A stretch of 64,000 nucleotides of DNA from Lachnospiraceae bacterium (GCA_024693225.1 JAILLI010000068.1:13929-77928); one strand, 5' to 3'; counted from the first letter of the stretch, positions 6,268-36,419 are shown. Translations and numbers: made by a program. The notes: generated by a model from the letters alone, not told the origin.

Positions 6268-6321
6268 ATCTGTCCCTTTCGATCCTCAAAGCCTTTCAGG
6301 TTTTACCCCATCCGGCCTTTA

Positions 6322-6627: not shown

Positions 6628-6641
6628 CTCTTCCCTCCGAT

Positions 6642-8417
6642 CTAGTTATGCTTTCCCTTCCTTCTCCTGTCATTTCCTTCTTTCATGTAATAGTCCGATT
6701 TCTGTGCGTTCATGCGCTGCTCTGCTTCCCGTCTCATATCTTCCACGGTCATCCCCTCCTTTTCCGAAGCACACACATAGCCCATTGAAACCGAAAGAGA
6801 GGGATGCAGCTTTCCTTTCCATCTGTCAAACCTGTCGCGAAGCTCCGATACTATCTCGGCCCTCTTTTCCGACGGGATCACGACAAGGGCAGAGAATTCA
6901 TCCCCACCGGTCCTGTATATGTCCCCGTAAGGTCCGAGAACGTCCTTGATACACTTGGCCGCACCTATTATCAGCTCGTCACCCGCCTCATGGCCGTGGC
7001 TGTCATTTGCCTCCTTGAGACGGTTCAAGTCAAAGGAAAAGAAGGTAAGGTCAGCTTCTATATCCTTTGCCGCGCGGCCGTCCATATGCTCATCAAAAGT
7101 CCTTCTGTTGTTGACATTGGTCATATGATCGATATGGGCCGTGGTGTTGAGGCTGTTCCTTGTCTTTTCTTCCTCCATAAGAGAATCTATGTTCCTGAAG
7201 CCGCAAACAAAGCGGACAACTCCCATATCATCCGTGACCCTTGCAAAACACAGCTGTATGTAATTCCTTGAGCCTTCCGGGTCCACCCTGAAGTAGTTCA
7301 CATGATATATCTCATCATCCTTTGTGGTGCGCATGAGGCTGTCTATGGATGTCATCAGATAGACCCGCTCACGGTCCTCAGGTACCACATAATGATCTAT
7401 ATAATTGCCGACGATCGTATCGTAGCTTCCTTCTTTTAACCTGTACATCTCGTCAGCAGCAGCCGACGGTTTGGTATTGTTGCGGATGAGCTTGGCATGG
7501 TGTATTGCCGCATCCACCAGCCAGATCGATTCATACTCGCATGAAAGTCCGGCCAGAAGGGTCATCTGGGTCTCGCGTTCACTCTCTCTCGCCAGCTTTT
7601 CACGGATCTGGGCATCATAATGTTCAAATCCGTATACTATCTTCCTCCCGTTGTCGAAGGGGATTATCTTCAGCCTGTAATATACTATCTTCCCGTCTCT
7701 TATGGTCCGGTAGGTATGGAAGACCGGATTGGTCTCCCTAAGGCGTTCCATAACGTAATCAAAATCCCCGAACCGTCTGACACCCTCGGCATCATCCCTG
7801 TATACGAACGCATTCACATAAACATCTATCACATTCTTAAGATAGGGATCACGGCTCAGCTCATCCTCAAGGGTCTTGCCATATCTGTTGAGTCTTACGG
7901 CACTTACCTTCCGGTCGCTCGTATCAACATATAAGACAGAGGTATAGGATCTTGCAATGGCATCATCTATCTCATAGAGGAGCTTCTGATGTTCCTTGAT
8001 CTCCTTCTCCTCCTCTCGGAAAAGAAAGCGGCGGGAACTGTCGGATATCTCATCATAGCGGACTATGCTGTATCTTCTCCCGTCCCTTGTGAATTCGTGT
8101 TTTCCGACGCAGTGTATGGTAAGGAGCTTTTTGTCCTTCCCCACAGCTTCATGGTATACCACATTGTAGTCTTCGTCTTTTTCGGAAAAAGCCTTTACAG
8201 CTTTTAGCATCTCTTCCTTTTCCGGCATGTTCACAAAAGGATCCGGTCCGTTAAGTCGGGACATCATCTCCTCGCGGGTCGCTTCGTACATGCTGCAGGC
8301 TCCCTCGGAGACAAGATATGCGCGAAACCTTCCGGTCTCATCAACATAGTAGATGGCCAGAGGGATCGGGGTATGCTCGTAAAACACGTGAATGTCGGGT
8401 GAAAATAATGGCTCCAT
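6642..8417 (-). CDS. Diguanylate cyclase (GGDEF) with large cytoplasmic N-terminal sensor region
   Basis: The C-terminal domain contains THIDHMTNVNNRRTFDEH and RTGGDEFSALV. A strong SD (AGGAGGAAGTT) precedes the ATG. Confidence 0.8.
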   Translation of the reverse strand: MEPLFSPDIHVFYEHTPIPLAIYYVDETGRFRAYLVSEGACSMYEATREEMMSRLNGPDPFVNMPEKEEMLKAVKAFSEKDEDYNVVYHEAVGKDKKLLTIHCVGKHEFTRDGRRYSIVRYDEISDSSRRFLFREEEKEIKEHQKLLYEIDDAIARSYTSVLYVDTSDRKVSAVRLNRYGKTLEDELSRDPYLKNVIDVYVNAFVYRDDAEGVRRFGDFDYVMERLRETNPVFHTYRTIRDGKIVYYRLKIIPFDNGRKIVYGFEHYDAQIREKLARESERETQMTLLAGLSCEYESIWLVDAAIHHAKLIRNNTKPSAAADEMYRLKEGSYDTIVGNYIDHYVVPEDRERVYLMTSIDSLMRTTKDDEIYHVNYFRVDPEGSRNYIQLCFARVTDDMGVVRFVCGFRNIDSLMEEEKTRNSLNTTAHIDHMTNVNNRRTFDEHMDGRAAKDIEADLTFFSFDLNRLKEANDSHGHEAGDELIIGAAKCIKDVLGPYGDIYRTGGDEFSALVVIPSEKRAEIVSELRDRFDRWKGKLHPSLSVSMGYVCASEKEGMTVEDMRREAEQRMNAQKSDYYMKEGNDRRRKGKHN

Positions 8418-8426
8418 AACTTCCTC

Positions 8427-9011
8427 CTAGTATCTGCTGCCACATGACGGCAGAGCGCTCTGAAGAAGGGGATCCGTTTTGAATCTCCCCCTGAATTCCG
8501 CCGTATATGTCCTGGCATTATGATTTTTTATGCCCCTGGCATTGACGCAGCTGTGGCTGGCTTCTATGGTCACAGCAACATCGCTGCTTCCTGTTATCTC
8601 ACTGATGATATCGGCTATGTCACGGCCCAACCGTTCCTGAAGCTGCAGTCTCCTCGAAGCCATGTCGCATACCCTGACGATCTTGGAAAGGCCTATGACC
8701 TTCCCGTTCGGTATGTAAGCAACGGCAGCCTTCATGTCATACATGAGGGCCATGTGGTGCTCGCAGTAGGAAAAAAGGTCTATATCCTTCATCACGACGA
8801 CCCGGTCGGAATCGGTCTCATAGTCATCCTCAAAAGTCCGGTCAAACATCCGGGCTATCTCATGGTTTGTATGGTTCATCCCCTCGAAGACTTCTTCATA
8901 CATGGCGGCGACACGCCTTGGTGTATCAACAAGTCCGGGACGGTCGGGATCATCTCCCAATGCCTCGATAATCCCCCTTATATGTCCTTCTATGGCTTCT
9001 TTGTCTATCAT
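8427..9011 (-). CDS. folE: GTP cyclohydrolase I
   Basis: The blocks [15 protein letters not shown] and [22 protein letters not shown] are present, at a typical length. Confidence 0.9.
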
Positions 9012-9012
9012 T

Positions 9013-9840
9013 TCATTCCTTTCTGCAGGAGAGTCCCGTCTCCTTGAAAAGCTTCATCATCTCGTTGGTAAGGCTTAAGTCATTGGGCTGGAGCTCTATG
9101 TCGGACCGCTCTACCCAGCTGGCATACTTGAGCTCACCCTCATCCATCCTGATCGTATCATCCCCGTCAACGTCACAGAAAAAACCCGCAAGTATATCCT
9201 GGGCCATTCCCCAGGGCTGGGACTTGTAATACCTGATGTTTTTGACCCTTATGCCGGCCTCTTCCATGACTTCACGCTCCACAGTCTCCTCAAGGGTCTC
9301 ACCGATCTCGGTAAATCCCGCTATCAGTGCACTGTGGGCATATCCTGTCCTGTACTTCGTTATCAGTATCCTGTCCTTGTTTATGACCCCGACAATGACT
9401 GCCGGATTGATGCGCGGATATATAATTTTACCACATCCTTTGCACTTTTGCGCCCTTTCTTTGTCATCCGGCACAAGCTCCTTCCCACAGACGCCGCAGT
9501 ACCTGTTGTCACTGTACCATCTCCACAGATGATATGCGGTAAAAGCGGCAAAAAGCTCCTTGCCGCAGCCTTCGTCGCGAAGCTGCCTGACGGACCGGTA
9601 CTCATATCCTTCTAAAACGGGCGTGGCTGACAATGACATAAAATACCTGTCCTCATCCACCGAAAAAAAATATATGGCATCATATCCCGCAAGGTCTGCC
9701 CGCGTAAATTCAAGGCCCTCTTCGGAAACTTTTGTCAGTATCTTCCCTTCTTTATCAAAGGCAAGTACCAGATCTTCTTCCGAAGGCTTTATATTCTTGT
9801 ATTGGTTGTGCAGCCTGCTCGGCCCTATGTCCTGTATCAT
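9013..9840 (-). CDS. nudC: NAD(+) diphosphatase (NADH pyrophosphatase), Nudix with zinc ribbon
   Basis: The zinc ribbon is CGVCGKEL...[17 protein letters not shown]. It is followed by the Nudix box [23 protein letters not shown]. Confidence 0.8.
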
Positions 9841-9842
9841 CT

Positions 9843-11159
9843 CTAATGCTTCTTCATTATGCTCTTATAGGCGGGGCGGACGATCTTGGTACCGCTCACC
9901 AGTTCCTCGATCCTGTGGGCACTCCAGCCCGCTACCCTTGCTATGGCAAATATGGGGGTAAAGAGTTCCCTTGGGATGTCCATCATGTCATAGGCAAAAC
10001 CGGAGTAGAAATCCACGTTGGGTGACACGCCCTTATATATCTTCCGCTTGTGGTTGATGACATCCGGAGCCAGGCTTTCCACCTTCTTGTAAAGAGCCAG
10101 GTCATCCATCCTTTTCTTCTCCTTTGACAGTCTTTCGACATACTTCCTGAAGATGACCTCTCTGGGATCCGACATGGAATATACCGCGTGTCCCATACCG
10201 TAGATAAGGCCCTGCCTGTCAAAAGTCTCCCCGTTCAGTATCTTCGTAAGATATGCTCGGATCTCATCATCATCATTTTGATCCTTCACGTTGGACCTGA
10301 TATCCTCCATCATCTCCATGACCTTGAGGTTGGCTCCGCCGTGCCTGGGTCCTTTAAGGGAGCACATGGCAGCCGCTATGGTGGCGTATGTATCCGAGCC
10401 CGATGATGTGACCACCCTTGTGGTAAAGCTCGAATTGTTGCCGCCCCCGTGCTCCATGTGAAGCGACAGGGCAACGTCAAGCGCCTTTGCCTCGGTCTTG
10501 GTGAACTTACTGTCAGGCCGGAGCAGGTTTAATATGTTCTCTGCGGTCGAAAGTTCCGGCATGGGTCTGTGTATATACATGCTGTCCATGTTCTCGTAAT
10601 GGTTGTATGCATGATAGCTGTATACTGCCAGCATGGGGAATACGGCTATGAGCTGCATACACTGGCTGACCACGTTTTCTATGGATGTGTCTGCAGCATT
10701 GGCATCATATGAGGCCAGGGTCAGGATGGACCTTGTCATAGAGTTCATGACATCCCTGGTGGGTGCCTTCATTATGACATCCCTGGTAAAGTTGGTCGGC
10801 AGCTCCCTTACTTCGGCCAGCGTCGTGATGAATTCTTCGGATTCGGCATCATCCGGCAGATCCCCGAAGAGGAGCAGGTAGGCCAGATTCTCATACCCGA
10901 AATCATTCTTTATATATCTCTTTATAAGGTCCTCGATCCGGTACCCCCTGTACCAGAGCTGTCCGTCGCAGGGATTGCCGTCCGGATCCCTTGCTATGAT
11001 GTTGGAAACATTGGTAAGTCCCGCCAGAACACCCCTACCGTTAAGGTCCCTAAGGCCCCGCTTTACATCATACTGCTCATAATATTCGGACGGTATACTG
11101 TCATTTTGTCTTATCAGCTCGGAATATGCCGAGGTATCAATGCTTTCTCTTGTCTTCAA
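9843..11159 (-). CDS. Citrate synthase
   Basis: The protein is 438 aa with citrate synthase blocks (GPRHGGANLKVMEM, GMGHAVY, DFYSGF). The start codon is TTG (plus-strand caa at 11157-11159), with AGGAGG 8 nt upstream. Confidence 0.85.
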   Translation of the reverse strand: MKTRESIDTSAYSELIRQNDSIPSEYYEQYDVKRGLRDLNGRGVLAGLTNVSNIIARDPDGNPCDGQLWYRGYRIEDLIKRYIKNDFGYENLAYLLLFGDLPDDAESEEFITTLAEVRELPTNFTRDVIMKAPTRDVMNSMTRSILTLASYDANAADTSIENVVSQCMQLIAVFPMLAVYSYHAYNHYENMDSMYIHRPMPELSTAENILNLLRPDSKFTKTEAKALDVALSLHMEHGGGNNSSFTTRVVTSSGSDTYATIAAAMCSLKGPRHGGANLKVMEMMEDIRSNVKDQNDDDEIRAYLTKILNGETFDRQGLIYGMGHAVYSMSDPREVIFRKYVERLSKEKKRMDDLALYKKVESLAPDVINHKRKIYKGVSPNVDFYSGFAYDMMDIPRELFTPIFAIARVAGWSAHRIEELVSGTKIVRPAYKSIMKKH

Positions 11160-11160
11160 T

Positions 11161-11189
11161 AAAATAACCTCCTAAGGCAGACTTAGGAG
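11161..11189 (-). terminator. Hairpin plus U-tract after the pilin-like gene; the 3' arm contains the citrate synthase SD
   Basis: The minus-strand RNA reads CUCCUAAG-UCUGC-CUUAGGAG, followed by GUUAUUUUA and then the TTG start. Confidence 0.45.
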
Positions 11190-11240
11190 ATTATTTTATT
11201 ATAATCATAAGGTTTCGGTCAAGTTATGTGCCTTAACTAT

Positions 11241-11921
11241 CTATTTCCTGTACAGGTCATCCGGCTTCGGCCAGAGTCTGTATACGGGATATCCCCCGTA
11301 GGGATCCGGCTGAGCCGCCCAGATTTCCATGGAGCCATTATCCCGTCGCTTACATATACGATAGCGGTCAAGGTCCTGATAAGGAAAGCCTCCCATCCTA
11401 TCGCCTATGGGGCCCTCTTTTTTCTTCGTATATGCCGGTATAATGGAACTGTTCATTTCTGTGGTGGAAAGTCCCAGCTCACGGTTAATAACGCCGTAAA
11501 ACCCGTCACTACCACGCTTATCGCGCACATAAAACGCCCTTGCGCCTCCGTTGAAACAATTTGATGCAGTATTTGTACTCTGTTTACCGCTTGATGCAAC
11601 CAGATCCACGGCATAACGTTCCGTAACCCCGTTTACAGTGGCAGAAACATTAAGATTAAGACCCCCCTCTGTCACACCCCACGCTTTGTATGCCTCATAA
11701 GCCTCCGGGTTTTCCGCAAATGCAACATTAACGGCTCTTGCTATCTGATCGGCCGTATATACATCCTTTGATTTTCTGGCCCTGTCTACATACTTTATGA
11801 ACATGGGGGTTAATACCCCTACCAGGATCGCCATTATGGCGATCACTATGATCAGCTCGATCAGAGACAACCCCCTCTTGTCCTTTGCTGCCTTGTAAAA
11901 CTCCCGCTTCATTGCATCCAC
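11241..11921 (-). CDS. Prepilin-type N-terminal cleavage/methylation domain protein (type IV pilin / pseudopilin-like)
   Basis: KRGLSLIELIIVIAIMAILVGVL matches the class III signal: G, a short spacer, E at +5, then a hydrophobic helix. The gene lies 20 nt downstream of atpC and has SD GAAGGTGG. Confidence 0.75.
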   Translation of the reverse strand: MDAMKREFYKAAKDKRGLSLIELIIVIAIMAILVGVLTPMFIKYVDRARKSKDVYTADQIARAVNVAFAENPEAYEAYKAWGVTEGGLNLNVSATVNGVTERYAVDLVASSGKQSTNTASNCFNGGARAFYVRDKRGSDGFYGVINRELGLSTTEMNSSIIPAYTKKKEGPIGDRMGGFPYQDLDRYRICKRRDNGSMEIWAAQPDPYGGYPVYRLWPKPDDLYRK

Positions 11922-11941
11922 CTTCGTTTCATTGCATATAT

Positions 11942-25867: not shown

Positions 25868-25922
25868 GGATCCGATCCCGGCGCCGATACCCCGGCCAAC
25901 GGTGATGTTTTCGCATTGGTAT

Positions 25923-25955
25923 AAGAAACAGCCGGTTATTACCCGGCTGTTTCTT
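25923..25955 (-). terminator. Strong hairpin terminating the peptide-export operon
   Basis: The hairpin is AAGAAACAGCCGG-(7 nt)-CCGGCUGUUUCUU, a 13-bp perfect stem. It starts 20 nt after the stop of the 48-aa peptide gene. The U-rich run lies within the 3' arm (UGUUUCUU) rather than after it. Confidence 0.6.
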
Positions 25956-25974
25956 ACTGCCCGCTCCCACGGTC

Positions 25975-26121
25975 TTATTGAAATCTCTCATTATCTATTC
26001 TTGGCATCTGTACACTAAGGCCTCCTGATGCATTATCCATCACTTCGTCCGAGATCATCTCTTCTGTCGTATTATCTTCTTCGTTATCAACCTCTGTCTT
26101 ATTCTTATTATTTTCTTCCAT
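25975..26121 (-). CDS. 48-aa double-glycine-leader precursor peptide B (not in the ORF track)
   Basis: Hand translation gives MEENNKNKTEVDNEEDNTTEEMISDEVMDNASGG/LSVQMPRIDNERFQ, then TAA. SD AAGGAGGG lies 7 nt upstream of the ATG at 26121. The leader is paralogous to that of the neighbouring 81-aa peptide. Confidence 0.7.
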   Translation of the reverse strand: MEENNKNKTEVDNEEDNTTEEMISDEVMDNASGGLSVQMPRIDNERFQ

Positions 26122-26146
26122 TTGAATTCCCTCCTTATCCCGAGTA

Positions 26147-26392
26147 TCAAGCCGGCCCCAGATATTCTCTTCCGCATCCGCCGCATTCGTAGAGATGATA
26201 TCCTTCAGGTCCGTATCCTATTCTGTCTGCGTCGTCTGCTCCGCAAAACGGACAGTGACCACTATGCACTTTACACAGGCTGATCAGATTATCCCAGTCC
26301 ACCTTGTCCCAGTCAAATCCCCCACCGGCTTCATTGAGTTCTTCATCCGACAACATCTCTTCGCCCGTTTGCCCTTTTTTATTATATGTCAT
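26147..26392 (-). CDS. 81-aa double-glycine-leader precursor peptide A with Cys/His-rich zinc-ribbon-like core
   Basis: The product is MTYNKKGQTGEEMLSDEELNEAGGG/FDWDKVDWDNLISLCKVHSGHCPFCGADDADRIGYGPEGYHLYECGGCGREYLGPA. I prefer the second ATG (26392) because GGAGGG lies 7 nt upstream. The ORF-track start at 26407 has no properly spaced SD. Confidence 0.7.
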   Translation of the reverse strand: MTYNKKGQTGEEMLSDEELNEAGGGFDWDKVDWDNLISLCKVHSGHCPFCGADDADRIGYGPEGYHLYECGGCGREYLGPA

Positions 26393-26503
26393 AGCATAAC
26401 CCTCCATTTTCCTTTACATATTTTCACCCGGAAGATCAAAAATCCCATATCTCATTTTCGAAATCCGATCTTTTAAGTTATCTTTATTATACACAAAATA
26501 ATA

Positions 26504-28708
26504 TCACAAACATGTCACACTAAGCGCGAGCATTGTTATATCATCCGCCTGTTCGGCACCATCCGAATACGATGCGATATCATCTCTTACAAGTTTCAAT
26601 AAGCCTTTGCAATCCCTGTATCCATTACCGTTTAACAGTTTTTGAAGTCTTTCTTCTTCGTAAAATCCGCCCCCGCTGTCCCTTGCCTCGGTAACACCGT
26701 CCGTGTATATAAAGATCGCATCACCCGGACACAGCTTTATAGTGAACGTTTTGTATCCGGTATCCGCAAAAAGGCCGAGTATACGTCCTGATCTGTTCCT
26801 GACATACTCCCACCCGCCGTCATGATAAACAAGCGGCGGATTATGGCCGGCATTTACGCATTGAAGGATACCGGTTTTATGATCGAATACCCCGGCAAAT
26901 ACCGTAACAAACATATTCGCGTCATTGCCTTCACACAGTTTGAGGTTGGCATTCTTTATTGCTTCATCTATCCCGATACCGGACTCCATACATGAGTGTA
27001 TCTCGGTCTTGGCCGCCATCATGAACAGTGCAGCCGGGATCCCTTTACCTGATACATCGCCGACCACTATCCCTATCTTATCCTTTCCTATCCTGAAGAA
27101 ATCGTAAAAATCTCCCCCTACCTCCCTTGCAGGATCCATAGATGCATATATATCCATCGATCCGATATCAGGGAAAGCCGGAAAATCGGTCGGGAGTGCA
27201 TTTCCCTGGATATCCGCAGCTATAGACAGCTCGCGTTCGATACGCTCACTGATCTCATCCATGGACCGCTCCAGCGACTCCACGGTCTTATTGATGCCTT
27301 CCGAAAGTGCTGAAAACTCGACTAACCCGCCTACACCTACCCGTTCATCAAGAGCACCTTCCGTTATCTTATGAAGAGAAGCATTTGCTTTATCGATCCT
27401 GCTTACTATTACATGTTCAAGAAGCAGCCGGGTTGTGATAAGTGTAAGTGCAAGGATCGAGAAAGTGATCAGAAGTGACCAGTAAAGTGAAGCAGTTCTG
27501 CCCTTCAGGACCTTTTTCGAATCACACACGACAATATAGTACATGTCATCGAACTTTCTTACTACGCTGTACGTATATATATTTTTTCCTTCATCCGCAA
27601 AATCCTCGGAATAAATGGTGAAGTACTTCTGCCCGGACAGATGATCAAAGAATTCACCGGCAGTAGGAAATCCCCCAAAATAATATCCCCCGCAGAATTC
27701 TTCCAGGGTCCGCCCCAGATGGTAATCCGAATTGGCCCCTACGGCAATACCGTCTTTGAAAACAGCCACTCCGAAATCATTTACAGGATCATATCCTTTT
27801 GCCACTTCATCAATATCTATCCCAAACTCTTTAATATACCTCCTCATCCGGCTGATATCGTACTCCGCATCGCTCACGCTCTGTTCTATGAGCCGGTCAG
27901 TGATCATGAAAAACTGAACGGCAGCAGCGATCATAAAGACATTAAAGGCGATAAGAAACAGCCGGGTTGTGAAGATCTGTCGGACACTTCGCTCGGCGGA
28001 AGCTCTTTGGTCATCGCCTATCAGGCGGTACAGCACCACAGCAGCCGTTCCGGCAAAAAGGGTTTCCAAACCGGCCGTAACGAACGCATAGCTTTTGATA
28101 TATTCCCCCCTGACGTAGGAAAGGACCTGGGGGATCGTCATCTGCCTGTTCATATATTCAGGGGCCATGATAAACAGGTATTCAAAATACAGGGTCAGAT
28201 CTGCTGCCATAAACACTGCCAGGATGGAACATACCATGGCAATGCATTTCTTTGTATCGCTTTTGATCCTGCTCACGATCAGATAAAAGATCATTCCGAG
28301 CAGAAATCCGGCAACAGCAAACGCAACAACGAACCCTATCGGATTAACATGGTTTTTTTCCTCTTCGTCCAGCGGTATATAATACGCGTGAAGAAGCGAT
28401 ACGGTTCCGACAAAGAGGCCGAATATCCCGCCCCGGATCGGGCCAAACAAAAGTGCGCCCACAGCTACCGATACTATCACAAGCCTCAGGTTAAACTCGA
28501 ACAATACCGTCCCGGCTGAGATCTCAAAATGCCTGAAGTCCGCTCCCATCATGATCATTGATAGGCTGAAAACCACCAAGGTTGCGGCAACGGCCCGTTT
28601 CATATTATCACCATGGAGCCGCATTAAGCCTGCCCAATGTATGATGTTTTCTTTTTCTTCTTTTTCCCGACTGTCCATCACCTGTTCACTGTACAAACGT
28701 GAATGCAT
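26504..28708 (-). CDS. Polytopic membrane sensor phosphatase: multi-TM N-terminus, extracytoplasmic domain, HAMP-like linker, PP2C (SpoIIE/RsbU family)
   Basis: The first 280 aa or so contain about 8 hydrophobic segments. A soluble segment of about 110 aa follows, bounded by a further TM (LYWSLLITFSILALTLITTRLLL). The PP2C blocks are GGDFYDF, VVGDVSGKGIPAALFM, NAGHNPP, YTDGVTEA and DDITMLAL. The start is uncertain between 28708 and 28678 (MDSREKEE). Confidence 0.8.
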   Translation of the reverse strand: MHSRLYSEQVMDSREKEEKENIIHWAGLMRLHGDNMKRAVAATLVVFSLSMIMMGADFRHFEISAGTVLFEFNLRLVIVSVAVGALLFGPIRGGIFGLFVGTVSLLHAYYIPLDEEEKNHVNPIGFVVAFAVAGFLLGMIFYLIVSRIKSDTKKCIAMVCSILAVFMAADLTLYFEYLFIMAPEYMNRQMTIPQVLSYVRGEYIKSYAFVTAGLETLFAGTAAVVLYRLIGDDQRASAERSVRQIFTTRLFLIAFNVFMIAAAVQFFMITDRLIEQSVSDAEYDISRMRRYIKEFGIDIDEVAKGYDPVNDFGVAVFKDGIAVGANSDYHLGRTLEEFCGGYYFGGFPTAGEFFDHLSGQKYFTIYSEDFADEGKNIYTYSVVRKFDDMYYIVVCDSKKVLKGRTASLYWSLLITFSILALTLITTRLLLEHVIVSRIDKANASLHKITEGALDERVGVGGLVEFSALSEGINKTVESLERSMDEISERIERELSIAADIQGNALPTDFPAFPDIGSMDIYASMDPAREVGGDFYDFFRIGKDKIGIVVGDVSGKGIPAALFMMAAKTEIHSCMESGIGIDEAIKNANLKLCEGNDANMFVTVFAGVFDHKTGILQCVNAGHNPPLVYHDGGWEYVRNRSGRILGLFADTGYKTFTIKLCPGDAIFIYTDGVTEARDSGGGFYEEERLQKLLNGNGYRDCKGLLKLVRDDIASYSDGAEQADDITMLALSVTCL

Positions 28709-28988
28709 CTGTAAGTCCCGTCATATTAAATAACTCATATATTTTTTCCTGAGGATGCAAAAGTCTGAACTTTCCTCCTCTTGAAGTTGTCATTCTGGCT
28801 GTACCGACAAATACACGTATTCCCGCGGATGAAATATAATCCGTCAAGGTAAGATCGATATCTATATCGACTACTTCCGCCGGGAGCGCGTTTACTTCAT
28901 CCTGAAGCTCGCTTGCGGTCATGGCATTCAGTTCCCCTTCCATCCTTATCGTCGCTTTGCTTCCTTCAATAATGCTTTCAACTGTCAT
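28686..28988 (-). CDS. STAS-domain protein (anti-sigma-factor antagonist, SpoIIAA/RsbV-like)
   Basis: The protein is 100 aa. The DYISSAGIRVF block contains the Ser normally phosphorylated in this family. Confidence 0.8.
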   Translation of the reverse strand: MTVESIIEGSKATIRMEGELNAMTASELQDEVNALPAEVVDIDIDLTLTDYISSAGIRVFVGTARMTTSRGGKFRLLHPQEKIYELFNMTGLTDAFTFVQ

Positions 28989-29009
28989 TATTCTTCCTCC
29001 GTTTTTGCT

Positions 29010-31199
29010 TTAGTCGCCTTCAACCTGCTGTCTCTTTACAAGATCGGCAAATGCGCCGTTTTGTGCGATAAGTTCATCGTAAGTACCGTCTTCTGCGATA
29101 TGTCCTTCATCAAGAACTATGATCCGGTCACAATTCTTTATTGTTGAAAGTCTGTGTGCGATAACTATACGTGTGCAGTTAAGAGATGAAAGGGAATCCG
29201 AAACCTTCTTCTGGGTGATATTGTCGAGTGCACTCGTTGCCTCATCAAACAGCAGTATCTTCGGTTTCGGTGCTATAGCTCTTGCTATCATGATGCGCTG
29301 CTTCTGTCCGCCTGAAATACCTCCGCTTCCTTCGGAAATAAGCGTAAACATACCCATCGGCATTTCTCTTATGTCATCTTCCATTCCTGCAAGCCTTGCA
29401 GCCTCCATGGCTTCTTCGAGGGTCAGCCCCGGAGCGGATATGGCTATATTTGTGAACAGGTCTCCGGAGAAGAGTTTTCCGTCCTGCAGCACGGTTCCGA
29501 TACGGCTGCGAAGAGATTTCTGATCGATGTTTCTCAGATCTTTTCCGTCATAATACACAGAACCCTTCTGCGGTGTCTCAAAACCGAGAAGTATCCTGAG
29601 CAGCGTCGATTTACCGCAGCCGGTCTTACCGGTTATCGCAACATACTGTCCGGGCTTTATCTTCAGAGTGATATTGTCAAGGACATTCGGCATATCATTG
29701 CGATAGCGAAACGTTACATTATTCAGTTCGATAGCTCCGCTCAGGTTTTCCAGGACGGGCTTATCCTCTGCTATCTCCGGTACGGTTTCCATGATCGGCT
29801 GTACCATTTTGATCGTCGAGATTATCTGCGAGATGCTCCCGGCTATACCTGCAAGCGAAAGGATCGCCCCGCTCATCATCCCGTATGCCGAATTGAAAGC
29901 ATAGTACTCCGATACCGAAACGCCGGAACCGATGGCCACCGCATAAAGGAGGATAGTCCCGAACAGGGATATAGTCATATTGATGATAGCTGTATACCTG
30001 ACAAACAGGGGCGGATTATATTTGATCTCCGAATTCTTCGCATAAAGATTTCCCCATTTTGCAAATGCCCGCCTCTCGGAACCGGACAGCCTTATCTTCT
30101 GGATACCGGATACAAGTGCAAAAGACATACCGCTCTCAACCGTCTCGGTCTCCATAAGCTTTCTGTTCTTACGTGTGGAGGCAAGGATCGACATTGTCGC
30201 AACAGCAAGTGTCACAAGTGTCAATATGACCGCAGGGGCTGCAAGTGCCGGGGTATAATGAAATATCTGAAAAACATAAACCACGGAGAAAAGCGCGGTC
30301 ACACTTGTTGACATACCTATGTCGACGACCTTTGTTATAAGAACATTCATATATCCCACACGGTTTGTCAGATCACCCGTCGAATACTTTTTGAAGAATG
30401 ATGAAGGCAGGGACAATATCCTCATCATGGTAGCTGCCTCCACACTCTGGTCAAGTTTTACGGATATCTTTCCCAGGACCAGGCTTTTGATCCCGCCGAA
30501 CAGGATCACGCTCACGGATACACTTATCATAAATACCGCTATGGCTATAAGCGCCCGGATACTTCCGCTCTCAATGACATCGGAGAACAGCATCCTGTTT
30601 ATCCAGGGCAGGAGCATACCGATAAGGGATACCAGGCCCGCAAAGGCGAGATATGTGATAAAGGCTCCTCTGTTTATGTTGTCAAATATATAGATCAGTA
30701 TTTCCTTAAACCCCAGCTTCTTTAACGGAAAGGGCTTATAAAAAGCGACCGCCTCATCGGAAAAGAGACTTTCCGTATGCGAGGTTACTTTTTTATATGC
30801 TCCGGTTACGGGATCAAGGTATTTGTAGCCGGTAAACTCCCTCGGGATAAGCGCAACAGGCTGCCCGTCAGCCGAATATGTTGTAAGCAATGCCCCCGAA
30901 GCGTCTTTGCGCCAGCCGCGTGCCAGTCTGACGGTCCTTGTCATTATCCCATGCGGGCGAAGCAGGTATTCGAGCACTTCATCAACTTTCTTTAAGGCGC
31001 CGGGGATCTCGATCATTTTGACATGATAATAATTCAGGATGTTTCCGATAGCATCCTTTGTCCGCTCCCTCTCATCATTAAGGGCGAGCGAAAGGCGCCT
31101 TCCCATAACGGATCCCGCGATCCTGATACAGGAAGCCTCAAAAGCCTCCCGGTCCGCCTTCTCTCTTGAATTTATCTGTTCTTCAACCCAATTGATCAT
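29010..31199 (-). CDS. ABC exporter (TMD-NBD) without active peptidase domain, NHLM/NHLP-bacteriocin-system type
   Basis: The N-terminal domain of about 150 aa has no catalytic Cys motif. Six TM segments follow. Walker A is GKTGCGKST, the signature is ISGGQKQR, and Walker B is LLFDEATSALD. Confidence 0.8.
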   Translation of the reverse strand: MINWVEEQINSREKADREAFEASCIRIAGSVMGRRLSLALNDERERTKDAIGNILNYYHVKMIEIPGALKKVDEVLEYLLRPHGIMTRTVRLARGWRKDASGALLTTYSADGQPVALIPREFTGYKYLDPVTGAYKKVTSHTESLFSDEAVAFYKPFPLKKLGFKEILIYIFDNINRGAFITYLAFAGLVSLIGMLLPWINRMLFSDVIESGSIRALIAIAVFMISVSVSVILFGGIKSLVLGKISVKLDQSVEAATMMRILSLPSSFFKKYSTGDLTNRVGYMNVLITKVVDIGMSTSVTALFSVVYVFQIFHYTPALAAPAVILTLVTLAVATMSILASTRKNRKLMETETVESGMSFALVSGIQKIRLSGSERRAFAKWGNLYAKNSEIKYNPPLFVRYTAIINMTISLFGTILLYAVAIGSGVSVSEYYAFNSAYGMMSGAILSLAGIAGSISQIISTIKMVQPIMETVPEIAEDKPVLENLSGAIELNNVTFRYRNDMPNVLDNITLKIKPGQYVAITGKTGCGKSTLLRILLGFETPQKGSVYYDGKDLRNIDQKSLRSRIGTVLQDGKLFSGDLFTNIAISAPGLTLEEAMEAARLAGMEDDIREMPMGMFTLISEGSGGISGGQKQRIMIARAIAPKPKILLFDEATSALDNITQKKVSDSLSSLNCTRIVIAHRLSTIKNCDRIIVLDEGHIAEDGTYDELIAQNGAFADLVKRQQVEGD

Positions 31200-31211
31200 A
31201 TTATTATCCGA

Positions 31212-33398
31212 TCATTCGCATGTTACCAGTTCTTTGTATCTTCCGTTATTATTCATAAGCGTCTCATGCCGGCCCCGTTCTATGACCTTTCCGCGATCAA
31301 GAACGATTATCTCATCACAGTCTCTTATGGTTGAAAGTCTGTGGGCAATGACGATGCAGGTTATTCCACGTCTTTTGATGGAACGGATGACTTCATACTC
31401 GGTCTTGCCATCAAGAGCACTTGTTGCTTCGTCAAGTATTATCAGTCTGGGATCCTGGGCAAGTACACGTGCTATCTCTAGACGCTGCCGCTGTCCGCCC
31501 GAAAGATCCCTTCCGTTTTCGCAGAGCCTGTAATTGTAACCGCCATCCCTGTTCATTATGTGCTCATGCAGCTGTGCATCTTTGGCTGCCATGATCATTT
31601 CATAATCTTCAATGGTGTCGTCCCACATTTTAATATTTGCTGATATCGTATCCTCAAAAAGGATGACATCCTGATCAACAACAGCAACTGATCCGGTAAA
31701 GATATTTCTGTCTATTTCCTTAATGTGTTTTCCGTCATACAGTATCTGTCCGCTCCACGGTTGATAAAGGCCGCTTATCAGCTTCCCGATGGTGGATTTC
31801 CCGCACCCTGAAGATCCGACTATAGCCACACTTTTTCCGCTTTTAAGTTCAAGGTTAAAATCTTCTATGAGCGGAGGTGCAAGCCTGGCATATCCGAACG
31901 TGACATGTTGTATTGAAATGTTTCCGGAAAGCTTGTCTTTAGGCTCCGAGGTGGAAGGATTTACATCAACGGCCAGGTTTTCGTCTCTCGGATATTCCAT
32001 TACATCCTCGATACGCTCCATCTGGCTCCTCATTTCCTGAATACTCTTACCGGCATTGACGAATGATCTGGCCGGAGCAAGAAAGCCTGACAGAAATCCC
32101 TGAAATGCAATGACCATACCGGGTGTATACTTACCCTTTATCACAAGATACACTCCCATGATGAGGATGATATCATTGACTACCGCTGTTGCGATCTCCG
32201 GAATGGTACCGATAGATGCCCCAAGCCTCTCAAATCTGACGTTCTGGGTGTTAACACTTGCCTGATAACCTGCCCATTTGCGGAAATACCCGTTTTCAGC
32301 CCCACTGCTCTTTATTGTATCTATCATATTGATACCGCTGGAGGTGGCCGATATCAGTTTTGATTCATCCCGCATCTGAACACGGGTTATATTTACCCTC
32401 TTTTTGCTGATTATCCTTGTCAGAATGAAGTTTATCAGTATCGAAGATATGCCGACCATTGTCATGCTTACGGAATACCGGAGCATTACCACCAGATAGA
32501 AAACAAGCATTGCCGAATCGATAAACAAAGGAGCGATCATATTTATGAGCGAGTCCGCGATCCCGGCATTGCTGCGGCGTCTGCCCTCTATGTCTCCGGC
32601 CATCCTCTGCGAGAAGAACTCCATCGGAAGACACAGCACATGCCAGAAATATGTCGCATTTCCTATAGCTGCGAACTTTCCGCTTATGCGAAGTGAATAT
32701 ATTGTCCTTATCCATTCGGAAACTATCTGAAGAAAAGCAACAGAACTGATCAGAATAAGAAAAGGGATCACAAGTGCGGGATTTTCGCCCGAAAGGAGAT
32801 CATCCATAAAGAATCTCGACAGTCCCGACATCAGGATCGAAAAAAAAGCAGCCAAAGCCGTTGTTATTGTAACAAAAGCAACGGCACCGCCGGTCCCCTT
32901 CAGTCGTTTTGCGGCAAACGCTTTCACACTTGCAGGTTTTCCCGAAGGTTCAAATCCCTCATCGGGCTCGAATATTATACATATGCCTGTGAAAGAGGTG
33001 TTGAATTCTTCCTCTGAAACGGTAACGGTCCCCCGGGCAGGATCATTAAGATATGCATTGCCGCCTTTAAAGCCTTTTAAGACCACAAAGTGATTCATGT
33101 TCCAGTGGATCACACAGGGGAAATTACCTTTTTCCTTCAGCCTCTGCGGACTGTACCTGTATCCCTGGGCTTTGAGGCCGTATGCTCTCGCCGCACGTGC
33201 AATATTTCCGGCCCTGGACCCGTCCCTTGATACCCCACAGTCCTTACGGGTCTGCTCAAGCGGGATCCACTTCCCGTAATATGCCAGTACCATGGCAAGG
33301 CAGGCGGCTCCGCATTCAAGGGCCTCCATCTGCATGATCACGGGTACTTTTGCAACACCATTTGCTATGGGCGCGTTGTTTGCTTTACGTCTGAACAT
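31212..33398 (-). CDS. Peptidase-C39-containing ABC exporter (PCAT)
   Basis: The N-terminal C39 domain has the catalytic Cys context QMEALECGAACLAMV, plus HFVVL and NDPA. The TMD follows. The NBD has GSSGCGKST, LSGGQRQR and IILDEATSALD. Confidence 0.9.
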   Translation of the reverse strand: MFRRKANNAPIANGVAKVPVIMQMEALECGAACLAMVLAYYGKWIPLEQTRKDCGVSRDGSRAGNIARAARAYGLKAQGYRYSPQRLKEKGNFPCVIHWNMNHFVVLKGFKGGNAYLNDPARGTVTVSEEEFNTSFTGICIIFEPDEGFEPSGKPASVKAFAAKRLKGTGGAVAFVTITTALAAFFSILMSGLSRFFMDDLLSGENPALVIPFLILISSVAFLQIVSEWIRTIYSLRISGKFAAIGNATYFWHVLCLPMEFFSQRMAGDIEGRRRSNAGIADSLINMIAPLFIDSAMLVFYLVVMLRYSVSMTMVGISSILINFILTRIISKKRVNITRVQMRDESKLISATSSGINMIDTIKSSGAENGYFRKWAGYQASVNTQNVRFERLGASIGTIPEIATAVVNDIILIMGVYLVIKGKYTPGMVIAFQGFLSGFLAPARSFVNAGKSIQEMRSQMERIEDVMEYPRDENLAVDVNPSTSEPKDKLSGNISIQHVTFGYARLAPPLIEDFNLELKSGKSVAIVGSSGCGKSTIGKLISGLYQPWSGQILYDGKHIKEIDRNIFTGSVAVVDQDVILFEDTISANIKMWDDTIEDYEMIMAAKDAQLHEHIMNRDGGYNYRLCENGRDLSGGQRQRLEIARVLAQDPRLIILDEATSALDGKTEYEVIRSIKRRGITCIVIAHRLSTIRDCDEIIVLDRGKVIERGRHETLMNNNGRYKELVTCE

Positions 33399-33410
33399 CC
33401 ACGCCCCTTC

Positions 33411-33635
33411 CTATCTGATGATATAGGTGATCGGTGCAACAGTTTTTCTTCCGGTATCCGTATTGATCGTGACCGTACCGAAAACTGCCCAGATAAATAT
33501 ACCTGCAAGAAGGATGATGACCGCCGTAAGGATCATCCACATTGAGGGCGTGGTGACTTTTATATAATCATCGAGTTGCTCCGGTGACTGTAATTTATCA
33601 AGAGTTTCCTTACGGAACAGTTTTTGTCGGTCCAT
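33411..33635 (-). CDS. 74-aa membrane protein resembling only the N-terminus of NHLM/NHLP-type HlyD secretion proteins
   Basis: The product is MDRQKLFRKETLDKLQSPEQLDDYIKVTTPSMWMILTAVIILLAGIFIWAVF... A strong SD (AGGAGGG) precedes the ATG. The gene lies 12 nt upstream of the PCAT gene. Confidence 0.65.
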   Translation of the reverse strand: MDRQKLFRKETLDKLQSPEQLDDYIKVTTPSMWMILTAVIILLAGIFIWAVFGTVTINTDTGRKTVAPITYIIR

Positions 33636-33657
33636 ATACCCTCCTGTAATATACGGG

Positions 33658-34860
33658 TTAATCCCTATAGATCAACGAGAACGCATAGCCCTCAAAGTTG
33701 ACGGCCGCGGTAACTGTGGCAGGGTTCATATCAGTATCGGCATATGTCCGGGTCCTGCCGTTCTTGTCGAGTGCCATGACGGCGAATGCTCTGCCGCCCT
33801 TCCGGTACTCCATGGGAACGATGATCGTCAGCACTCCGTTCTTTACGGTATCGTCAACCTTGCCGTTTATGGCCATGTTGAAAGAAAATACTTCCTTCCA
33901 TCCGGCTGTACGGTCAGCATTAAAGACTGCCTGTGCGGCAGGACCCTGTTTGGTCTTCCCCATCGCAAGCCCGTATACCGGCTGTCCGTTTATGGCCATA
34001 AACCCTTCAACGGTATCGGGGTTGACTGCTGCAGCTTTGATCTCTTTATCATCATCGTCATCATGTCCGGGCTCGGGCGAAGGATGAGGATCATCTTCAA
34101 TAACAACATCATTTATAGTGATAATATCCTTCAGGCCCTGTATCCTCCAGACACCTTTCCCCCGTTTGCTTATACACTCAGGGTGATCTGACGATCCGAG
34201 CTTTGTGATGATCTTACCCCTGTCTCTGGCAGAAACATCAATGTATCCGCCCTCCCATACCCAAACTTTCCAGTCGGGCAGCTGTTCACTATGATATGCT
34301 GCTTCGGGACCGCTGACCTTCATATCATCCCATTCTTCTCCGTTGTCCGAATCTTCGATAGCGATCTCAAACATTTCCTTTGAAGCGCTCTTACCTGTAA
34401 CGGTGCCTGCACTGCCATCGCTGTTGTGAAGATTTGCTTCCACCGTTCCGCTGTTATTTGTTACCTCTGCACCGGCATAATTGATCTTGACCCTGCCTCC
34501 GTCATTAACAACCTTTGCGTAGTTTCTTGTTACCTTACCGGCATTGGAGCCGACCACCTCTCTGTTGATCAGAATATCACCGTCTTCGGCATTTTCTTTG
34601 ACGGTGCCCAGATTATTTGTGATATCCCCCTTGTTTGTTGTGACCGTGCTTTTTTCGGAAACCTCACTGATGCTTCCGTTGTTGGTCCCGACATTATGAC
34701 CGTTCGTACTGTTGATCACTTCGTTTGCAGCGATCACATCAACATCCTTTGTGAGATTGTCGTGATCATCGACCGGCAGGGCCGCAGATACACTTATCGG
34801 GGCTGCTATAACGACAGCACACGTTAGAGAGATCATCTTTTTCAATATTGATCTATACAT
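33658..34860 (-). CDS. Secreted protein of unknown function (Asn/Gly/Val-rich repeat N-terminal half, acidic linker, beta-rich C-terminal half)
   Basis: I prefer the start at MYRSILKKMISLTCAVVIAAPISVSA/ALP (ATG 34860, AAGGAGG 12 nt upstream). The ORF track starts at 34887. This is a Sec-type signal peptide with no double-glycine leader. Confidence 0.6.
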   Translation of the reverse strand: MYRSILKKMISLTCAVVIAAPISVSAALPVDDHDNLTKDVDVIAANEVINSTNGHNVGTNNGSISEVSEKSTVTTNKGDITNNLGTVKENAEDGDILINREVVGSNAGKVTRNYAKVVNDGGRVKINYAGAEVTNNSGTVEANLHNSDGSAGTVTGKSASKEMFEIAIEDSDNGEEWDDMKVSGPEAAYHSEQLPDWKVWVWEGGYIDVSARDRGKIITKLGSSDHPECISKRGKGVWRIQGLKDIITINDVVIEDDPHPSPEPGHDDDDDKEIKAAAVNPDTVEGFMAINGQPVYGLAMGKTKQGPAAQAVFNADRTAGWKEVFSFNMAINGKVDDTVKNGVLTIIVPMEYRKGGRAFAVMALDKNGRTRTYADTDMNPATVTAAVNFEGYAFSLIYRD

Positions 34861-34992
34861 AAAACAAATATACCTCCTTGACGACATGGTTTAAGCCAAA
34901 GACCTGACTCGGTTATTATACAATATACAGGCTTTATACGTCTATATCATTAGATAAGTACCGGCCATTTCTTTACTTATTCATTTCTTATG

Positions 34993-35021
34993 TTGACTTT
35001 TATATCTTCGAAGTATATATT
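34993..35021 (+). promoter_or_regulatory. Putative sigma-A promoter for purA
   Basis: TTGACT (34993-34998) is followed by a 17-nt spacer and TATATT (35016-35021), about 100 nt upstream of the purA ATG. Confidence 0.4.
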
Positions 35022-35123
35022 TCTTTTTGGGCAAAGGGGCCATAGCTGTGTTTATGGTACTCTTTTTTATTTTTGTCAAAAGTCCGGTATTTTATGACGG
35101 ACCGGCCATAAGGAGGATATGTC

Positions 35124-36419
35124 ATGGTAAAAGCTGTTGTCGGAGCCAACTGGGGTGATGAGGGAAAAGGAAAGATCACGGACATGCTCGCCCAGAACGC
35201 AGATGTTGTCGTTCGCTTTCAGGGCGGTGCCAATGCCGGCCATACCATAAAGAACAAATACGGGAAGTTCGCTCTCCATACCCTTCCCTCCGGAGTATTT
35301 AACGAGAATACCGTAAACGTCATAGGAAACGGCGTTGCTCTTAACATACCCATCCTGATGGATGAGATTGATACCATAGTGGGAAAAGGGGTTCCCAAGC
35401 CCATCATCCTCATATCCGAAAGGGCCCAGATGATCATGCCATACCATATAGCCTTTGACAGATATGAAGAGGAACGTCTCGGGGGCAGATCCTTCGGCTC
35501 GACAAAGTCCGGCATAGCTCCCTTCTATTCGGACAAGTTTGCCAAGATCGGCTTTCAGGTAAGTGACCTGTGGGACAGTGAGGACAACCTCAAGGAAAAG
35601 ATCCGGAATGTGACCGTCCAGAAGAACATCCTTCTTGAACACCTCTATCATAAAGACCCCATAGACGTTGATGATACATACAGGACACTCATGCAGTACC
35701 GTGATATGATAGCCCCTTACGTCTGCGATGTTTCCTCATACTTAAGGGATGCCTTAAAAGAAGGCAAGACTATCCTTCTCGAGGGCCAGCTCGGAACCTT
35801 AAAGGACTGCGACCACGGTATATATCCCATGGTGACCTCATCAAATACAATTGCGGCATACGGGGCCGTCGGCTGCGGAATACCGCCCTATGAGATAAAA
35901 CAGGTCATCTCGGTCTGCAAGGCTTATTCTTCATCAGTCGGTGCAGGTGAATTTGTCAGTGAGATAAAAGACGAAGCCGTTGCCGATGAACTGCGCCGCC
36001 GCGGAGGCGATGGCGGTGAATACGGTGCCACGACTGGAAGGCCCAGGCGCATGGGCTGGTTCGACTGCGTGGCATCAAAGTACGGATGCGCCCTCCAGGG
36101 TACGACCGATGTTGCATTTACGGTTCTTGATGTTCTGGGTTATCTGGACGAGATACCGGTATGTGTCGGTTATGAGATAGACGGTCAGGTAACGACCCGT
36201 TTCCCCGTAACAAGGCTTCTGTCCCGGGCAAAGCCGGTCTACGAAACCCTTCCCGGCTGGAAGTGCGATATAGCCGGCATACGCGACTATGATGCTCTTC
36301 CCGAAAACTGCCGCAGATACATAGAGTTCATAGAAAAGAAGATCGGATACCCCATCACCATGATAAGCAACGGTCCTTCAAGAGACGATATAATCTACCG
36401 CAAGTCCCCTATCGGATAA
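35124..36419 (+). CDS. purA: Adenylosuccinate synthetase
   Basis: The N-terminus is VVGANWGDEGKGKITD, followed by RFQGGANAGHT. SD AAGGAGGA precedes the start. Confidence 0.95.
   Translation: MVKAVVGANWGDEGKGKITDMLAQNADVVVRFQGGANAGHTIKNKYGKFALHTLPSGVFNENTVNVIGNGVALNIPILMDEIDTIVGKGVPKPIILISERAQMIMPYHIAFDRYEEERLGGRSFGSTKSGIAPFYSDKFAKIGFQVSDLWDSEDNLKEKIRNVTVQKNILLEHLYHKDPIDVDDTYRTLMQYRDMIAPYVCDVSSYLRDALKEGKTILLEGQLGTLKDCDHGIYPMVTSSNTIAAYGAVGCGIPPYEIKQVISVCKAYSSSVGAGEFVSEIKDEAVADELRRRGGDGGEYGATTGRPRRMGWFDCVASKYGCALQGTTDVAFTVLDVLGYLDEIPVCVGYEIDGQVTTRFPVTRLLSRAKPVYETLPGWKCDIAGIRDYDALPENCRRYIEFIEKKIGYPITMISNGPSRDDIIYRKSPIG

Follow-up and report, generated by a model that had tools for sequence, protein, structure and literature searches.

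A predicted partner-switching module linked to double-glycine peptide exporters, and an apparently trimmed copy of it in a Lachnospiraceae bacterium

In a 64,000-nt stretch of Lachnospiraceae bacterium DNA (GCA_024693225.1 JAILLI010000068.1:13929-77928), here called the window and numbered from its first nucleotide, eight minus-strand genes form a compact array in which the subunits of a double-glycine peptide exporter stand beside a single-domain STAS protein and a membrane phosphatase with a SpoIIE-type catalytic domain (hereafter PP2C). Judged by conservation of sequence and gene order, the STAS-PP2C pair belongs with this exporter family as a true and conserved accessory, presumably a regulatory one. 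On gene content, the family resembles a partner switch of the usual kind with a sigma factor as its output, and the window appears to hold a trimmed copy. Our reading, to which we give slightly less than even confidence, is that a partner-switching module has been built into the export operon and would control peptide production and export through a kinase and a sigma factor encoded elsewhere. The other genes of the array encode a secreted-type protein (SEC), a short HlyD-family subunit, a peptidase-containing ABC exporter (PCAT), a second ABC exporter subunit (ABC2) and two small peptide precursors (PEP1 and PEP2); their positions are collected in Table 1.

The linkage between exporter and module is seen from three starting points. 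A scan anchored on ABC2 and restricted to one genome per species gave 72 loci, the flanks of which were profile-searched within 10 kb. A STAS gene lies near the exporter in 17 of these loci, a PP2C gene in 16 and a gene for an RsbW-like kinase in 12; at least one of the three is present in 21/72 and both STAS and PP2C in 12/72. All 16 PP2C genes and 16 of the 17 STAS genes are oriented as the exporter is, and both are often contiguous with it. The case for enrichment rests on recurrence, contiguity, co-orientation and reciprocal best relatives rather than on a genome-wide background count. The lineages with linkage include Lachnospiraceae, Oscillospiraceae, Ruminococcaceae, Robinsoniella, Treponema and Chloroflexia.

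A search of 5.8 billion proteins with STAS returned only two non-identical homologs, P0183 (70%) and P0184 (45%), both encoded directly after an ABC2 gene. Locus L081 has the order PCAT (87%), ABC2 (84%), STAS (70%) and the N-terminus of a PP2C, while L082 has ABC2 (68%) followed by STAS (45%). From PP2C, a scan of metagenomes gave 13 loci, several of them aligned over the full length. Among them, L085 (61% GC) has the order sigma-HlyD(short)-PCAT-ABC2-STAS-PP2C, with identities of 52, 46, 44 and 33% to the window proteins; L092 has ABC2-STAS-PP2C, and both L083 and L093 have sigma-STAS-PP2C. A STAS gene stands directly 3' of ABC2 in the window, L081, L082, L085, L092, L025 and four Robinsoniella loci. 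Co-conservation was the test set beforehand for the preliminary description of this locus, and it is found from the exporter, the STAS and the PP2C anchors alike. Since the genes are co-conserved from all three, we read their adjacency as a conserved functional linkage and not as chance. Two further loci from the survey have other genes nearby: in L014 (12306-13175) a flagellin gene lies between ABC2 and PP2C, and in L053 (5178-5939) an FGE-sulfatase-like gene adjoins a gene for a 200-aa STAS-domain protein upstream of the exporter.

The neighbour genes of the relatives were clustered, and the clusters annotated by family (Pfam). A sigma factor resembling the extracytoplasmic function (ECF) type, with regions 2 and 4 only, accompanies the exporter in 34/72 loci, and an RsbW-type HATPase_c_2 kinase is another recurring neighbour family. 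The kinase is present in 10 of the 12 loci that hold both STAS and PP2C, with the sigma factor as well in seven of those ten. The Robinsoniella array, for example, reads PP2C-RsbW-sigma-rSAM-precursors-HlyD-PCAT-ABC2-STAS, where rSAM is a radical-SAM gene. Among the close metagenomic relatives of the window PP2C, the kinase is fused to the phosphatase C-terminus in 9/10. The ten best homologs of the sensor region in an exhaustive search are all of the form sensor-HAMP-SpoIIE, five with a fused kinase and five with none. By these counts, a partner switch free of kinase and sigma factor is not the general form of the association with exporters. The absence of the kinase from the window is probably derived, because the closest catalytic-domain relatives carry one. 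Nor is the trimmed copy an assembly artefact, since a second, independent assembly contains a 734-aa PP2C that is 98.9% identical, together with peptide cores identical to those of PEP1 and PEP2. Other recurring neighbours are radical-SAM/SPASM maturases (10 loci) and many double-glycine precursors, joined in the diderm lineages by a periplasmic binding protein and a TolC-like protein.

In Treponema, a conserved bipartite element of the form TTAGCC-N16-CGTATAAAT (18 sites) precedes both a peptide-sigma gene pair and multi-copy bacteriocin-like genes. It is a candidate promoter of the cluster sigma, such an arrangement being the expected signature of an autoregulated sigma factor. Its sites include L041 16446, L043 13324/14882/15657/19386 and L050 14641/15575/17885, with others in L066, L067 and elsewhere, and weaker versions stand before leader-peptide genes in the Lachnospiraceae loci L005 (1388), L070 and L009 (4502). 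In at least 10 loci the gene immediately before that of the ECF-like sigma factor encodes a precursor of 64-77 aa from a conserved family, with an N-terminal part of about 55 aa (KLKQLFDFQKFEGNS...YIDSL...ELSDDELDMVNAAG) and then a short variable tail; members are found at L005 1464-1658, L050 17932-18147, L055 5324-5551, L043 19451-19675 and in other loci, and the family has no match in Pfam or NCBIfam. By analogy, and as speculation, this fixed pairing of precursor and sigma factor recalls the exported anti-sigma factors BtrA and FlgM.

Two loci hold duplicated switch genes. In L096, a tandem pair of fusions between a MATE-type membrane domain (MatE) and an RsbW-type HATPase_c_2 kinase (7573-9357 and 9374-11233) directly follows a STAS gene and a PP2C-kinase gene. 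In L085 there are tandem sensor-HAMP-PP2C-kinase paralogues (6111-8735 and 9368-11941), one with a sensor like that of the window protein and the other with 5TMR_LYT. The presence there of two PP2C-kinase paralogues and two STAS genes beside one exporter suggests several inputs into one switch.

The two proteins that remain in the window have the features expected of switch components. STAS scores 66.9 bits against TIGR00377 (cut-off 53.45), and its Ser54 falls, in alignment, on the serine that is phosphorylated in RsbV and SpoIIAA; against the MlaB family NF033618 it reaches 17.7 bits where the cut-off is 90, which places it outside that family. PP2C matches the SpoIIE family of Pfam with 177 bits, its HAMP match being weak. 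Residues D536, D551, D670, D722 and D723 are invariant in an alignment of 42 sequences (A1), the catalytic motifs align with those of Rv1364c and RssB, and this retention of motifs indicates that the phosphatase is catalytically intact. The earlier assignment of the pair as a SpoIIE/RsbU-like phosphatase and an RsbV/SpoIIAA-like STAS protein thus holds, both in family matches (Pfam and NCBIfam) and in the motifs and Ser54 that are kept. The genomic context of the closest catalytic-domain homolog, P0002 (44% identity), consists of unrelated genes and says little here, the word-based search that gave it having been saturated by the common SpoIIE domain.

An AlphaFold2 model of PP2C, with a mean predicted local distance difference test (pLDDT) of 86.7, divides the protein into a polytopic bundle (residues 34-239), a long helix (242-293), a compact alpha/beta domain (approximately 299-400), a return helix leading into a HAMP-type coiled coil (404-504) and the PP2C domain itself (518-731). 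Foldseek places the catalytic domain with RssB, Rv1364c, SiaA and SpoIIE (TMt up to 0.84, against RssB and SiaA). When modelled separately (pLDDT 87.3), the sensor insert is most like the extracellular PAS/Cache-type domain of WalK (9a5d, E 1.2e-4; 4ywz), with chemoreceptors and histidine kinases also among its matches. The E-values are modest, but the matches point to one fold class for the modelled insert, PAS/Cache-like. This supports the outward-facing sensor domain that had been predicted for this protein beforehand, and the insert is set between transmembrane helices.

The N-terminus of PP2C deserves separate comment. With the start chosen by NCBI the protein has 682 aa (MCR5474426), yet the N-terminal W25-x-G27 is conserved in L081 and in the 42-sequence alignment, and the NCBI start is probably too short. 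Either of the upstream starts (ATG 28708 or Met11; region 28553-28708) makes the gene overlap or abut STAS.

Turning to the likely cargo, PEP1 and PEP2 have in common the leader EEM(L/I)SDE(E/V)(L/M)(N/D)(E/N)A(G/S)GG, in which positions -4, -7 and -12 are A, L/M and L/I. LahT, a characterised double-glycine protease from rumen Lachnospiraceae bacterium C6A11, reads hydrophobic leader residues at -4, -7 and -12 (PMC6363468). Because the leaders carry hydrophobic residues at the positions that LahT reads, PEP1 and PEP2 are credible PCAT substrates, and their earlier designation as double-glycine cargo is credible on the same ground. Neither has an NHLP or Nif11 match in NCBIfam; each has a short double-glycine leader only. 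The predicted PEP1 core (FDWDKV...) carries CPFCG...CGGCG and is Zn-ribbon-like, with weak Zn-ribbon matches, and a homolog search found nothing outside the peptide's own 90% cluster. For PEP2 there is a weak match in L007, to a 64-aa peptide whose gene lies upstream of the exporter.

Short hydrophilic double-glycine peptides also adjoin STAS or PP2C genes in L021 (peptide-STAS-PP2C), L011 (peptide-STAS), L087 (downstream of PP2C-kinase), L085 (near the second STAS gene) and L096 (divergent from PP2C). The two small genes that follow the kinase-less PP2C of L096 were considered as a parallel to PEP1 and PEP2 and ruled out, since they encode membrane peptides and not double-glycine precursors. 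A double-glycine-leader peptide of L058 (10890-11273), with the core CPRCG...CPRCG, resembles the Zn-ribbon-like core of PEP1; judging from these two, exported Zn-ribbon-like peptides may be a recurrent cargo type.

In the mechanism that we tentatively favour, PP2C would respond to an extracellular cue, with the exported peptides as its leading candidates and envelope perturbation as the alternative, and would then dephosphorylate STAS at Ser54. Unphosphorylated STAS would capture an RsbW-type anti-sigma kinase, and the ECF-like sigma factor so freed would transcribe the peptide and export genes. Kinase and sigma factor would have to be supplied from elsewhere in this genome, the local copy having lost both. 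Precedent for partners in trans comes from the Anabaena pair HenR/All4160 (preprint), a PP2C and a STAS protein whose kinases are not linked to them and whose output is no sigma factor.

Several points weigh against this mechanism. The trans-acting partners are assumed rather than seen: in agreement with the preliminary description, no RsbW-type kinase was found within the 64 kb of the window, even with the filters switched off and E<=10 allowed, nor any homolog of the cluster-associated sigma family, and no kinase remnant lies past the PP2C stop codon or elsewhere in the 64 kb. That the RsbW-type kinase holds the ECF-like sigma factor is itself a putative pairing in this family, and a peptide, while plausible, is only a candidate for the PP2C ligand. 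The nearest relatives of the exporter (L005, L070 and L006, ~61% identity) have no STAS and no PP2C, so that the module must be regarded as optional. STAS is also less constrained than the exporter, with a dN/dS relative to L081 of 0.33, as against 0.06-0.08 (0.08 for ABC2 and 0.055 for PCAT). Finally, scanning the window with a position weight matrix built from the 18 Treponema sites gave none of at least 8 bits, where true sites score 31-50; the matrix comes from a distant phylum, and this negative is therefore a weak one.

What PP2C senses can be put more specifically. The exported peptide, the best candidate being PEP2 with its 14-aa core, might serve as an autoinducer: PP2C would read it at the cell surface through a PAS/Cache-like or polytopic sensor and pass the signal on by dephosphorylating a serine of STAS; we regard this as possible, though on the unlikely side. 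Were it so, the output of STAS in the trimmed copy might act on the exporter itself.

Alternatively, PP2C may read a different signal, namely perturbation of the envelope or membrane, or some compound of foreign origin, for instance the bacteriocin of a competitor, and switch on peptide production in response. The sensor parts of exporter-linked PP2Cs do vary widely, comprising forms with two transmembrane segments and a 170-350-aa loop, polytopic bundles and 5TMR_LYT, and the insert of the window protein resembles the extracellular domain of a cell-envelope sensor, WalK. However, diverse sensors with hypervariable peptides beside them are also typical of co-evolving pheromone-receptor pairs, and peptide genes adjoin sensor genes in several loci. 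We consider such a signal unlikely.

A more direct form of control would dispense with the sigma factor altogether: STAS, its state set by PP2C, would bind the nucleotide-binding domains of ABC2 or PCAT and so gate ATPase activity or export. Such control would be akin to the action of MlaB on MlaF, or to that of BtrU/V/W on type III secretion in Bordetella. The position of STAS immediately 3' of ABC2 in the loci listed above fits this, all the more as Robinsoniella keeps the ABC2-STAS adjacency though its PP2C-RsbW-sigma genes lie ~8 kb upstream, and as the window itself is without kinase or sigma factor. There is precedent too, in that partner switches govern secretion by a route that is not known and not purely transcriptional (PMC7498569) and can regulate an enzyme directly (the Anabaena preprint). 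On the other hand, the score of STAS against the MlaB model is far under the cut-off, a phospho-serine without a kinase still needs explanation, and a STAS gene at the end of an export operon fits autoregulatory feedback equally well. Overall, direct gating of the exporter seems to us distinctly unlikely.

Could the pair be the remnant of a switch in decay, with kinase domain and sigma factor lost and STAS and PP2C carried along in the export operon as signalling-dead baggage? The probably derived absence of the kinase, the relaxed constraint on STAS relative to the exporter and the failure to match the promoter type of the cluster sigma within the window are what one would expect. Yet neither reading frame is broken, no catalytic or phospho-site residue has been lost, kinase-less members make up half of the sensor family, and the arrangement occurs in two assemblies with its order kept in L081. 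Because the dN/dS of STAS is clearly below 1, a mark of purifying selection, and all functional residues are retained, we do not take the trimmed copy for decay, and judge a dead remnant quite improbable. That a bacteriocin exporter and an unrelated STAS/PP2C pair have come to lie together by chance, as the absence of the module from the closest exporter relatives might suggest, is highly improbable, given that the association is recurrent, co-oriented and often contiguous in Lachnospiraceae, Oscillospiraceae, Robinsoniella, Treponema, Chloroflexia and a 61%-GC lineage, and that the closest relatives of STAS and PP2C are themselves exporter-linked.

The exporter itself is of a recognisable kind. 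Both ABC subunits exceed the NCBIfam cut-offs for their families (Table 1), in keeping with the NHLM/NHLP-type export set proposed earlier. PCAT has a Peptidase_C39 match of 117.8 bits in Pfam, and its peptidase domain aligns with LahT150 (PDB 6MPZ) at 233 bits over 143 aa, including Cys29 and the histidine of NHFVVLK. As anticipated for an exporter without peptidase, ABC2 gives no C39 match in the Pfam and NCBIfam searches, and the N-terminal 175 aa of ABC2 have no solved relative in the PDB. Profile searches of PCAT, ABC2, STAS and PP2C, which had been suggested as a check, matched the expected families, TIGR03794 aligning with the HlyD-like protein over its first 45 positions only. Of the 421 positions of this profile, the 74-aa protein covers too few to qualify as a full-length HlyD (34.1 bits, cut-off 156.2). 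It is nevertheless better described as a miniature subunit than as a pseudogene, because HlyD proteins of only 74-180 aa are conserved across 25 loci of the Firmicutes type, throughout this clade of the exporter (L005-L031); the HlyD of Treponema and other diderms has ~370 aa, and their loci also hold a TolC-like gene.

All eight open reading frames of the preliminary description are present at the positions it gave, and its tight packing is confirmed, with gaps of at most 25 nt and a single exception of 111 nt. In the order of transcription, the gaps are 22 nt (SEC-HlyD), 12 nt (HlyD-PCAT), 12 nt (PCAT-ABC2) and 21 nt (ABC2-STAS); the STAS and PP2C frames overlap by 23 nt, and gaps of 111 nt (PP2C-PEP1) and 25 nt (PEP1-PEP2) follow. 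Shine-Dalgarno sequences precede the ATGs at 34860, 26392 and 26121, starts which match the NCBI protein lengths. The source is a metagenome-assembled genome of a Lachnospiraceae bacterium with locus tags K6F28_04395-04430, in which NCBI names the genes individually and not as a system. From their translations alone, the flanking genes read as glnA and purA, the same identities as were given before. The GC content of the cluster is 0.455-0.484 (window 26000-36000), as against ~0.48-0.53 across most of the window; with the position between glnA and purA, this is compatible with acquisition as an island.

Membership of SEC in the system is doubtful: it has no Pfam or NCBIfam match and no homolog across the related loci, and by eye its N-terminus has a hydrophobic, signal-peptide-like stretch. 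The lone TATAAT in the gap between PP2C and PEP1 may mean that the peptide genes own a separate promoter. As for the terminator said to close the array, the hairpin is real but a clean T-tract is absent. An Rfam scan of the window found no leader RNA in the cluster, its sole match being a tRNA gene (918-989, minus strand).

Table 1. Features of the array and its predicted transcription signals, in window coordinates
Feature	Position	Strand	Basis
Sigma-70-like promoter candidate, TAGACG-18-TATAAT, upstream of the first gene	34915..34944	-	Consensus scan, 10/12 matches
SEC, secreted-type protein, 400 aa, family unassigned, first gene of the array	33658..34860	-	Open reading frame; Shine-Dalgarno AAGGAGG before ATG 34860
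Short HlyD-family subunit, 74 aa, N-terminal helix and one transmembrane segment	33411..33635	-	TIGR03794 positions 1-45
PCAT, peptidase-containing ABC exporter (TIGR03796)	31212..33398	-	NCBIfam 881.6 bits, cut-off 853.3
ABC2, second ABC exporter subunit (TIGR03797)	29010..31199	-	NCBIfam 720.5 bits, cut-off 709.4
STAS, single domain, anti-sigma-antagonist type, phospho-acceptor position Ser54	28686..28988	-	PF01740, TIGR00377
PP2C, polytopic helical bundle, extracytoplasmic PAS/Cache-like domain (predicted), HAMP, SpoIIE-type PP2C; no kinase domain	26504..28708	-	Pfam, AlphaFold2, Foldseek
Perfect TATAAT hexamer in the 111-nt PP2C-PEP1 gap	26486..26491	-	Read from sequence; -35 poor; absent from the consensus-scan list
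PEP1, 81-aa precursor, double-glycine leader and 56-aa core	26147..26392	-	Open reading frame, Shine-Dalgarno, leader alignment
PEP2, 48-aa precursor, double-glycine leader and 14-aa hydrophilic core LSVQMPRIDNERFQ	25975..26121	-	Open reading frame, Shine-Dalgarno, leader alignment
Terminator-like hairpin at the array end	25923..25955	-	-32.4 kcal/mol, z = -5.6, within the 71-nt stretch 25905-25975

We found nothing in the open-access literature that links partner switching, STAS or SpoIIE with PCAT, double-glycine, bacteriocin or RiPP (ribosomally synthesised and post-translationally modified peptide) export, and a 2021 review of STAS-only proteins makes no mention of such a link; within that literature, the earlier remark that no description of the arrangement was known stands. 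Each part is of a known kind (a LahT-like PCAT, an NHLM-type ABC2, an RsbV-like STAS and a SpoIIE-type PP2C), and it is the wiring between export and switch that appears to be new. The bacteriocins and pheromones carried by double-glycine exporters shape communities of the gut and rumen, and the circuits known to control these exporters are two-component systems and Rgg or RRNPP regulators. To these would be added a conserved alternative, spread across several phyla, in which the export cluster itself encodes a membrane PP2C, a STAS protein and usually an RsbW-type kinase and an ECF-like sigma factor.

Should the link prove regulatory, it gives a new handle for switching on silent RiPP or bacteriocin clusters in anaerobes, and with it a new class of extracytoplasmic sensors, the ligands of which may be sought among the neighbouring genes; Robinsoniella peoriensis CCUG 48729, whose locus L028 holds the complete version in a 13-gene array, is a culturable organism for such work. 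The kinase-less copy in the window poses the question of what a STAS protein and its phosphatase can do alone. Should the autoinducer proposal prove true, it would amount to a third architecture for peptide quorum sensing, beside the histidine kinase and the cytoplasmic RRNPP receptor, spread across gut and rumen Firmicutes, Treponema and Chloroflexi.

Among known systems, the closest on the export side is the lah cluster of LahT (PDB 6MPZ; Bobeica et al. 2019), which the window resembles in its PCAT peptidase domain, its origin in rumen Lachnospiraceae and its double-glycine leader substrates. That cluster has nine Nif11-type precursors, with no STAS or phosphatase mentioned (PMC6363468), whereas the leaders in the window are short and neither Nif11 nor NHLP. 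The NHLP/NHLM export trio (Haft et al. 2010, PMC2887384) shares with the window both ABC subunits, above the equivalog cut-offs, and the order HlyD-PCAT-ABC2; the window differs in its 74-aa HlyD and lacks both a modification enzyme and a precursor of the NHLP or Nif11 type. The founding paper of NHLP mentions no sigma factor or STAS protein (PMC2887384).

With the Bacillus switches RsbU-RsbV-RsbW-sigmaB and SpoIIE-SpoIIAA-SpoIIAB-sigmaF, the window shares a SpoIIE-family PP2C and a single-domain STAS with a phospho-serine. It differs from them in lacking kinase and sigma factor, in that its PP2C is a predicted membrane receptor and in the placing of the module inside a peptide-export operon, and the sigma factor of its relatives is two-domain and ECF-like, not a group-3 sigma. 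The best solved sequence match to the PP2C domain is Mycobacterium tuberculosis Rv1364c (PDB 3KE6), a fusion of RsbU and RsbW. Such phosphatase-kinase fusion is the norm among the relatives of the window PP2C. Unlike the membrane-bound, kinase-less window protein, Rv1364c is a cytoplasmic protein, with PAS and STAS domains besides. Pseudomonas aeruginosa SiaA, a HAMP-PP2C membrane phosphatase that works with SiaB and SiaC, is a relative of the PP2C domain in both structure and sequence. Like the window, Anabaena HenR/All4160 pairs a PP2C with a STAS protein; its kinases are unlinked and it does not act through a sigma factor. The output of SiaA is c-di-GMP and biofilm and that of HenR is polysaccharide synthesis, neither of them linked to peptide export.

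The Bordetella btr system (BtrU/BtrV/BtrW, the ECF sigma BtrS and the secreted anti-sigma factor BtrA; PMC7498569, PMC8256260) also ties a secretion apparatus to a partner switch with an ECF sigma factor. There, however, the secretion is type III and not through a PCAT, the kinase is present and the organism is a Gram-negative pathogen. On the side of peptide signalling, the streptococcal ComABCDE and BlpABCRH systems also have a PCAT-exported double-glycine peptide, with peptide genes beside the gene for a polytopic membrane sensor. Sensing in streptococci falls to a histidine kinase, which is paired with a LytTR response regulator. In line with the preliminary description, the Pfam and NCBIfam scan of the eight cluster proteins, to which it was confined, found no histidine kinase or receiver domain among them. 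In the window, the output of the sensor would be a PP2C acting on STAS, with peptide sensing as a putative input.

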